DNA of 64,000 nt, taken from the NCBI RefSeq assembly GCF_044324875.1, contig NZ_CP172185.1, one strand, 5' to 3'. The DNA comes from Escherichia coli (GTDB taxonomy: Bacteria; Pseudomonadota; Gammaproteobacteria; Enterobacterales; Enterobacteriaceae). This document shows positions 46,508 through 46,927 of this stretch, piece by piece (position 1 is the stretch's first letter; the number at the start of each line of letters is the position of its first letter). A model generated the notes under the pieces. That model saw only the letters and a list, made by a program, of their open reading frames with translations. It had not been told where the DNA came from and ran no database searches. A program made the translations under genes and the position numbers.

Positions 46508-46583
46508 TGGAGCGGGAAACGAGACTCGAACTCGCGACCCCGACCTTGGCAAGGTCGTGCTCTACCAACTGAGCTATTCCCGC
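46508..46583 (-). tRNA. glyY: tRNA-Gly (anticodon GCC)
   Basis: 76-nt exact reverse complement of the E. coli tRNA-Gly(GCC) sequence (GCGGGAATAGCTCAGTTGGTAGAGCACGACCTTGCCAAGGTCGGGGTCGCGAGTTCGAGTCTCGTTTCCCGCTCCA); gene name by position in the triplet. Confidence 0.95.
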
Positions 46584-46618
46584 TTGGGTGGTCTGTGCTT
46601 TACAGCACTTTCAAATTT

Positions 46619-46694
46619 TGGAGCGGGAAACGAGACTCGAACTCGCGACCCCGACCTTGGCAAGGTCGTGCTCTACCAACTGAGCTATTCCCGC
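46619..46694 (-). tRNA. glyX: tRNA-Gly (anticodon GCC)
   Basis: Second identical 76-nt copy, separated from the first by a 35-bp spacer. Confidence 0.95.
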
Positions 46695-46851
46695 TTAATC
46701 TTCGTCTTTCGAACCGCTACTGCCTTGGCTGCCTTCACTCACCTTAGTCACTTACTTTTGTAAGCTCCCAAGGATTCGTTCAGTTGCCGCCTTGTCGCAA
46801 TTCGAAATACTGCGATTGGGTGGTCTGTGCTTTGCAGCACTTTTCAAATTT

Positions 46852-46927
46852 TGGAGCGGGAAACGAGACTCGAACTCGCGACCCCGACCTTGGCAAGGTC
46901 GTGCTCTACCAACTGAGCTATTCCCGC
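46852..46927 (-). tRNA. glyV: tRNA-Gly (anticodon GCC)
   Basis: Third identical 76-nt copy; the preceding spacer repeats the ttgggtggtctgtgcttt(a/g)cagcactttcaaatttt unit. Confidence 0.95.

Follow-up and report, generated by a model that had tools for sequence, protein, structure and literature searches.

In the 64,000-nt stretch of Escherichia coli DNA analysed here (contig NZ_CP172185.1; hereafter the window), the transfer RNA (tRNA) operon glyVXY raises a question: what are the 121 bases that lengthen the spacer between its first two genes, and how do they come to lie within a unit that produces stable RNA? We identify them as an element of the enterobacterial repetitive intergenic consensus family (ERIC, also known as intergenic repeat unit, IRU). 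As for their role, the reading we prefer, to which we assign a probability of roughly three in four, is that the element is a co-transcribed, self-folding spacer module which is removed by RNase P and RNase E, and which has been gained, lost and moved by recombination between the identical tRNA genes.

The locus itself is the E. coli orn-glyVXY-queG region, in which three tRNA genes are read leftward from one stringent-type promoter (Table 1). In a megablast search of 5,426 complete E. coli genomes, the segment was 99.4-99.9% identical to the region comprising orn, three tRNA-Gly genes and queG, and the annotated order is rsgA, orn, glyV, glyX, glyY, yjeV, queG in strain GN25 as well as in K-12 MG1655. 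A preliminary description of the stretch had claimed three identical tandem 76-nt genes for tRNA-Gly(GCC), to be checked with a tRNA predictor on the minus strand. This was borne out: ARAGORN found exactly three tRNA genes in the whole window, all of them tRNA-Gly(GCC) on the minus strand, each copy scored 69.1 bits with the Rfam tRNA model RF00005 (gathering score 29), the full-length exact-string search returned three matches and the repeat finder a three-copy family. Three identical 76-mers cannot arise by chance. The same description noted that the 35-bp spacer recurs with one substitution and one extra T, which is accurate to the base (the substitution is A/G). The tRNAs, the promoter and the short spacers are identical or nearly identical to K-12 (NC_000913.3, 4392360-4392658); orn and rsgA flank the array at one end, queG and yjeV at the opposite end.

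Between glyV and glyX, the preliminary description had seen a longer unique spacer, ordinary for a gly tRNA cluster. The tRNA genes are indeed ordinary and the sequence is indeed unique within the window; genome-wide, however, it is a dispersed repeat, and the K-12 spacers measure 36 and 35 bp without any insert. The interval 46695-46851 (157 nt) consists of the 36-nt spacer and 121 further bases, and the only block of difference from K-12 is a clean 121-bp insertion that separates ...CACCCAA from GCGGG, the start of glyX, and has AA at both edges. The element has the orientation of the tRNA genes and its 3' end abuts nucleotide +1 of glyX. The RNA of the whole 157-nt spacer is predicted to form a long imperfect hairpin (-51 kcal/mol, z = -4.9).

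Several observations identify the insert as an ERIC. It is an imperfect palindrome of 121 bp, or 123 bp with both flanking AA, against ~127 bp for the family. It carries terminal inverted repeats (AATC...GATT and TTTCGAA...TTCGAAA), which form helices 1 and 2 of the consensus fold, and it matches the conserved ERIC1R/ERIC2 primer core at 35 of 44 positions (counted by hand on the alignment), the core differences from CCCCAG/CTGGGG to CCTTGG/CTAAGG being compensatory. Over their whole length, five other E. coli ERICs align with the window element, and the consensus of six E. coli copies reproduces the ERIC1R complement and the ERIC2 primer exactly. With the copy between puuR and puuC of K-12 it shares 76.6% identity (E = 1e-12). 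Dispersed, mostly intergenic copies are likewise present: by blastn, the median number of places that the family occupies in an E. coli genome is 7 (~75-81% identity), with paralogues in the puuR-puuC, queA-acpH, dxs-yajO and pgk-fbaA intervals and one in an integrative and conjugative element. The last of these (locus L008, E. coli TUM13770) lies within the integrative element between mobH, encoding a MobH relaxase, and ardC, encoding ArdC, and its right end CTCGAAAGACGAAGGGAA is closer to the copies beside tRNA-Gly than are those of other chromosomal E. coli ERICs. The MG1655 record leaves its ERICs unannotated and no Rfam family matches the element. We know of no transposase for ERIC.

Within E. 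coli, the insertion is polymorphic. A query spanning its junction was covered over at least 80% of its length in 1606 of the 5426 complete E. coli genomes (29.6%), consistent with a separate blastn search in which 1605 records held a copy at 95% identity or more. Carriers include enterotoxigenic strain H10407, enteroaggregative strain 042 and O111 strains, and the element is absent from K-12 and O157:H7. It also sits in spacer 1, with 97-100% identity, in four further Escherichia species or clades (E. whittamii, E1V33, MOD1-EC7003 and SCPM-O-B-8794), so it predates E. coli. Most simply, therefore, the empty state of K-12 is secondary and results from precise loss.

Beyond Escherichia, species-representative genomes were scanned once with a degenerate pattern combining the right end of the ERIC with the first 25 nt of tRNA-Gly(GCC), a pattern that would also accept ordinary ERIC ends. 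The junction was found in 35 loci of at least 12 genera, namely Escherichia spp., Citrobacter, Salmonella diarizonae, Klebsiella, Kluyvera, Yokenella, Buttiauxella, Pluralibacter, Superficieibacter, Silvania, Enterobacter and Pantoea. Full-length elements scored 75-115 bits with an ERIC profile, ended 0-1 nt from the tRNA 5' end and always lay on the tRNA strand. In 30 of the 35 loci, orn and/or queG stood beside the array, which makes these the orthologous locus. The position of the element within the array varied. Escherichia, S. diarizonae, Yokenella, Kluyvera and others have it in spacer 1; C. youngae CCUG, Citrobacter NCU1 and Silvania have it in spacer 2; C. youngae ATCC 29220 has it in both, and in Pantoea and C. 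amalonaticus AUH it lies in the leader of gene 1. The close relatives Citrobacter Awk4 (spacer 1) and NCU1 (spacer 2) differ only in the spacer that holds it, a sign that arrays are rearranged within short times. Remnants with internal deletions, in spacers of 67-86 nt, keep the termini AATCGCAGG... and ...GAAAGACGAAGATTAA directly upstream of tRNA-Gly (loci L021, L028, L029, L033, L034 and L039; L014 and L035, before gene 2; L016, in the gene-1 leader), and C. amalonaticus S646 has such remnants before all three tRNA-Gly genes.

A second type of locus was also noted, in Pantoea and in 'Enterobacter cancerogenus' M004 (L017, L041, L042 and L036), where a solitary tRNA-Gly(GCC) gene carries an ERIC of the same lineage at its 5' end (shortened to a remnant in L036) and the fetched locus contains neither orn nor queG. 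This points to duplication of the ERIC+tRNA unit, or its conversion, from one locus to another. The copy of Pantoea formicae is matched at 97-98% identity by those of M004, so the M004 record may be misnamed.

Judged by their sequences, the ERICs next to tRNA genes are a lineage of their own, distinct from the general ERIC pool: their mean mutual identity is 84% (minimum 71%), against 66% (maximum 77%) to ten ordinary ERICs of the same genomes. Within this lineage, identity to the E. coli copy correlates with nucleotide identity of orn (Spearman 0.79, p = 6e-5). In all 19 species compared with E. coli, the ERIC is more similar than the fourfold-degenerate sites of orn, for example 90-95% against 49-62% in Citrobacter, 89% against 66% in S. 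diarizonae and 79% against 57% in Pantoea.

What is conserved appears to be the folding of the transcript. From 29 copies of the orthologous type, RNAalifold derived a hairpin of 37 pairs, in which 98.4% of cells are paired and double-sided changes occur at 14 of the 37 pairs (85 cells). None of 500 shuffles reached these pairing values, and partners slid by 1-3 columns keep 2-3 such pairs. On the tRNA-sense strand, the cells that are not Watson-Crick comprise 92 G.U and 3 A.C, and the same helices are only 89.8% paired when read on the antisense strand. The sense RNA is predicted to be the more stable one in 29 of 29 copies (mean -41.2 vs -26.5 kcal/mol). This asymmetry between G.U and A.C argues that selection has acted on the sense transcript and not on duplex DNA. 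From the alignment, the hairpin is thus seen to be kept by compensatory and G.U-type changes that would work only on the transcribed strand.

The model we favour assumes that the ERIC is co-transcribed from PglyVXY within a precursor of ~500 nt; a consensus scan found no terminator-like site inside the element. It would then fold by itself into a closed hairpin, and the same hairpin is predicted by minimum free energy folding for the element alone and within the 503-nt precursor (folds of the whole precursor are uninformative for the tRNAs, as three identical copies mispair in silico, and were used only for this independent folding of the ERIC). Cleavage by RNase P at glyX +1 would free the 3' end, RNase E would cut behind glyV, where the 36-nt spacer is A/U-rich and single-stranded, and the hairpin would subsequently be discarded. 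Selection would favour a closed hairpin, in which 121 untranslated bases neither mispair with the tRNAs nor offer entry to Rho or RNases. As the 76-bp tRNA genes are identical and the 35/36-nt spacers nearly so, recombination or gene conversion within the array, or between strains, could add, move or precisely remove an ERIC or ERIC+tRNA unit. For example, a conversion tract of glyX-spacer-glyY onto glyV-spacer-ERIC-glyX would delete the ERIC exactly, while the reverse event or an unequal exchange would duplicate or move it. Such recombination would lead to variable position, tandem double copies and clean loss of the K-12 type.

Several points weigh against this model or limit its reach. The RNase steps for the allele bearing the ERIC are extrapolated from its position and from work on K-12. 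Some 70% of E. coli genomes do without the element, which is therefore dispensable. Descent has not been purely vertical: the spacer of Escherichia sp. MOD1-EC7003 is 100% identical to that of the window at an orn identity of 96%, and the gene-1 copy of C. amalonaticus AUH is out of step with its host, so that some exchange of the element between lineages is likely. The 35 foreign loci were selected through their ERIC-end/tRNA junction and are not a survey of prevalence. The invariance of the last 18 nt is partly imposed by the search pattern, although the same sequence is found in copies not forced by it, for example the full-length ones of Pluralibacter and C. amalonaticus AUH. Moreover, ERICs in general may show excess conservation and compensatory change, as Wilson and Sharp reportedly argued in 2006. 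Finally, the element is flanked by AA...AA in Escherichia and by AA...AT in Citrobacter and Salmonella, whereas ERICs are described as having 5'-TA-3' termini and duplicating a TA target site (PMC2229807, Table 1; PMC3184786). The K-12 empty site, CACCCAA|GCGGG, has no TA either; the length of the 2-bp flanks fits a TA duplication and their sequence does not. If K-12 represents a secondary loss, the flanking AA need not be a duplication at all.

The alternative that survives best, though we think it considerably less likely than the model above, is that the hairpin is a functional RNA module and not a tolerated passenger. In this form, the tRNA-Gly ERIC would be a domesticated hairpin of ~120 nt, selected since before the split of Enterobacteriaceae and Erwiniaceae (Pantoea), a proposal we likewise treat as tentative. 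In cis, it might serve the downstream tRNA as a processing element, folding insulator or anti-Rho device, or it might modulate read-through into datA; in trans, it might be a stable spacer-derived RNA released by RNase P/RNase E in the manner of the 3' external transcribed spacer (3'ETS) sponge of leuZ. Purifying selection that exceeds the level of neutral sites in all 19 comparisons, the covariation of the sense-strand RNA, the invariant junction with the RNase P site and the retention of both termini in the 67-86-nt remnants, including copies outside the search pattern, would all be expected of such a module. There are precedents as well: functional tRNA spacers are known (PMC7154689) and read-through from PglyVXY controls IHF binding at datA (PMC10950094). 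On the other hand, selection merely to stay harmless predicts the same covariation; the lack of an Rfam match and of an internal terminator-like site counts against a function; and the clean loss in ~70% of E. coli, K-12 among them, without a known defect argues against an essential role.

We consider it very improbable that the element is a recent selfish insertion of a miniature transposable element with inverted repeats (MITE), with K-12 as the ancestral empty site and with the other species hit by repeated insertion at a tRNA-Gly hotspot. The clean indel, the 2-bp AA on both sides resembling a target-site duplication and the terminal inverted repeats AATC...GATT do recall such an event, as do the patchy distribution across E. 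coli phylogroups and the different left flank of the gene-1 leader copies in C. amalonaticus AUH and Pantoea. But by blastn no plausible donor was found in any E. coli genome, the best non-orthologous copy being ~77-81% identical, and the four other Escherichia species or clades share the spacer position. The tRNA-adjacent copies form one distinct lineage even though the search pattern also accepted ordinary ERIC ends, and divergence of the element tracks that of its hosts.

Slightly less probable still is that the element acts as DNA, either as a cruciform or as a protein-binding site comparable to the IHF- or gyrase-binding BIME/REP repeats (bacterial interspersed mosaic elements and repetitive extragenic palindromes), perhaps in connection with datA. 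It is true that a long palindrome here lies ~200-450 bp from the DnaA boxes and IHF site of datA, a locus sensitive in its function to supercoiling and to transcription nearby. Both strands, however, would count alike for a function as duplex or cruciform, and the strand asymmetry described above (pairing, G.U over A.C, weaker antisense fold in every copy) speaks against it. In window scans, moreover, both the IHF consensus and the DnaA box are absent from the element, the sole IHF match being the IHF-binding site of datA.

That the locus is a CRISPR-like array (short palindromic repeats, clustered and regularly interspaced) or codes for protein on the plus strand can be practically dismissed: three direct repeats with spacers, overlapped by mechanical open reading frames (ORFs) of 119, 93 and 83 amino acids, do invite the misreading against which the preliminary description warned with good reason, but the repeats are 76-nt tRNAs with full cloverleaf scores instead of ~23-47-nt CRISPR repeats with unique spacers of similar length and cas genes nearby, the spacers measure 35 and 157 nt with the former recurring inside the latter, the neighbours are orn, rsgA and queG, and the three antisense ORFs have no Pfam match, no RefSeq annotation and no coding sequence called by PGAP.

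Table 1 Features of the glyVXY operon and the adjoining datA region in the window
Feature	Position	Strand	Basis or remark
glyVXY promoter	46985-47012	-	-35 TTGCAG 47012-47007, 16-nt spacer, -10 TATAAT 46990-46985; read from sequence
glyV, tRNA-Gly(GCC), operon gene 1	46852-46927	-	ARAGORN; RF00005; identical to K-12 glyV
36-nt intercistronic spacer, AAAUUUGAAAAGUGCUGCAAAGCACAGACCACCCAA	46816-46851	-	identical to entire K-12 glyV-glyX spacer
ERIC/IRU element, 121 bp	46695-46815 (or equally 46697-46817, flanking AA)	-	insertion relative to K-12; primer core; paralogues
glyX, tRNA-Gly(GCC), operon gene 2	46619-46694	-	ARAGORN; RF00005; K-12 comparison
35-nt spacer, paralogue of the 36-nt spacer	46584-46618	-	sequence; repeat finder; K-12 alignment
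glyY, tRNA-Gly(GCC), operon gene 3	46508-46583	-	ARAGORN; RF00005; K-12 comparison
TglyVXY terminator/attenuator, hairpin followed by UUUUUGUUG	46449-46485	-	fold -14.3 kcal/mol, z = -2.4
datA DnaA-box match, TTATCCACA	46414-46422	-	
datA DnaA-box match, TTATTCACA	46252-46260	-	
datA DnaA-box match, TCATCCACA	46240-46248	+	

The promoter is followed by a GC-rich discriminator, GCGCCTCC, with the transcription start near 46977. It is the same in K-12, and Citrobacter, Salmonella, Kluyvera and Yokenella conserve the segment from the -35 through the leader. In the template that Kime et al. used for in-vitro glyVXY precursors, the native portion starts with CCGTAACGACGCAG (PMC3985628), which maps ~7 nt past the -10 in the window, and activity of PglyV-X-Y was demonstrated experimentally in K-12 (PMC10950094). 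A simple consensus scan missed both this promoter, because its -35 matches at only 3 of 6 positions, and the imperfect terminator; they were found by reading, from the literature and by folding. In four of the foreign loci (L037, MOD1-EC7003; L030, S. diarizonae; L021; L039), orn is ~1.0-1.2 kb from the first tRNA gene, compared with ~210 bp in E. coli, and similarity to E. coli ends abruptly just upstream of the -35, which indicates that other sequence was inserted between orn and the gly promoter.

As for the short spacers, the 5' part of the 36-nt one is A/U-rich and single-stranded in the predicted fold, followed by a small hairpin (GUGCU/AGCAC). Direct-entry cleavage of the glyVXY precursor by RNase E requires unpaired intergenic regions (PMC4191395). 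The stem of the small hairpin covaries between genera (window; L011, L016, L019, L025, L038), being GUGCU/AGCAC in E. coli, GUAUC/GAUAC in Citrobacter Awk4, AUGCU/AGCAU in Yokenella, GUGUC/GACAC in Pluralibacter and GGCUU/AAGCC in Buttiauxella, while the flanking AAAUUUGAAA and CACCCAA remain constant. Such a comparison suggests that the hairpin may be a conserved processing signal. An Rfam hit to YrlA (Y RNA-like) at 46555-46654 (-) extends from the 3' half of glyX across the 35-nt spacer into the 5' half of glyY; it reached 31.2 bits against a gathering score of 69 and was rejected as an artefact of tRNA-likeness, reflecting the tRNA-like module of YrlA.

Downstream, the interval 46240-46489 between glyY and queG is the replication-control locus datA. 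The TglyVXY hairpin overlaps datA DnaA box 1, ATATCCACA (46481-46489, minus strand), in agreement with its description as an attenuator overlapping a DnaA box (PMC10950094). Two of the three perfect DnaA-box matches of the window fall in this region, and the sole IHF-consensus match of the window, TAACTTATTGATA (46345-46357, minus strand), lies between the datA boxes. Over the whole window, DnaA boxes are not enriched (49 observed vs 45 expected), so that only the local cluster is meaningful. Together with the IHF match, it agrees with the published layout of datA, where read-through from PglyVXY regulates IHF binding (PMC10950094). The 17-codon ORF yjeV (46221-46274, minus strand; K-12 b4670, hypothetical protein of PGAP in GN25) overlaps the queG 3' end and the datA DnaA boxes.

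The tRNA cluster is already known; the element in the glyV-glyX spacer adds to the ERIC family a member that is new or has at least not been documented. We found no link of ERIC to tRNA-Gly or glyVXY in the literature within our reach, which did not extend to the primary ERIC surveys, and an earlier description there is possible. ERICs have been used in strain typing for about 35 years, and their biological role is still unsettled. The copy in the tRNA operon is an unusually clean test case for it. The operon is untranslated and highly expressed, which excludes effects of ribosomes; the 3' boundary of the element is a defined RNase P site; its sense-strand covariation extends across genera; and E. 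coli offers isogenic-like alleles with and without it. As read-through from PglyVXY is known to regulate datA, an effect of the 121-nt insert on elongation or processing would be measurable by existing assays. If the element were domesticated, the 30%/70% polymorphism of E. coli would be a natural functional variant, and the copy would be the first ERIC for which a selectable role is defined, be it in stable-RNA biogenesis or in the control of replication timing. For annotation, no ORFs or CRISPR-like repeats should be called at glyVXY, and the K-12 reference does not represent the anatomy of the operon in about a third of E. coli genomes.

Compared with known systems, the operon of the window matches K-12 glyV-glyX-glyY (tRNA-Gly3, GCC; between orn and queG, upstream of datA) in tRNAs, promoter, leader, 36/35-nt spacers, terminator and synteny, identically or nearly so. 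The K-12 operon lacks the 121-bp element, and the primary transcript of the window would be ~121 nt longer, with a structured glyX leader. With ERIC/IRU elements in general (~127-bp, MITE-like imperfect palindromes), the window copy shares size, dispersed copies, primer core, terminal repeats, a predicted stem-loop RNA and, presumably, co-transcription. Unlike the usual ones, it resides inside a tRNA operon instead of next to an mRNA gene and abuts the mature 5' end of a tRNA, and its sub-lineage is marked by the ends AATCGCAGG... and ...GAAAGACGAAGATTAA, by CCTTGG/CTAAGG instead of CCCCAG/CTGGGG in the core and by AA instead of TA flanks.

A functional parallel comes from Yersinia, where ERICs affect transcript stability (De Gregorio et al. 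2005, as summarised in PMC2229807 and PMC3184786). According to these summaries, the two systems would have in common a co-transcribed ERIC hairpin in a polycistronic RNA, dependence on orientation and involvement of RNase E, whereas the mechanism differs, since in Yersinia ribosomes expose an RNase E site in mRNA and the operon of the window is untranslated, its tRNAs being matured by RNase P/RNase E. The 3'ETS-leuZ of glyW-cysT-leuZ, a sponge of small RNAs (Lalaouna et al. 2015, as cited in PMC7154689), is similarly a piece of tRNA-precursor spacer that the nucleases of tRNA processing would set free; compared with what is cited of it, the window element is a repeat-derived closed hairpin, known here from conservation of position and structure. 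Finally, the palindromic repeats of Rickettsia (Rickettsia palindromic elements, RPE) insert into the genes for tmRNA and RNase P RNA (PMC2229807). In both cases, a mobile palindromic repeat is tolerated in a transcription unit of non-coding RNA, but the RPE stays within the mature RNA, whereas the ERIC of the window lies in a spacer that is removed.

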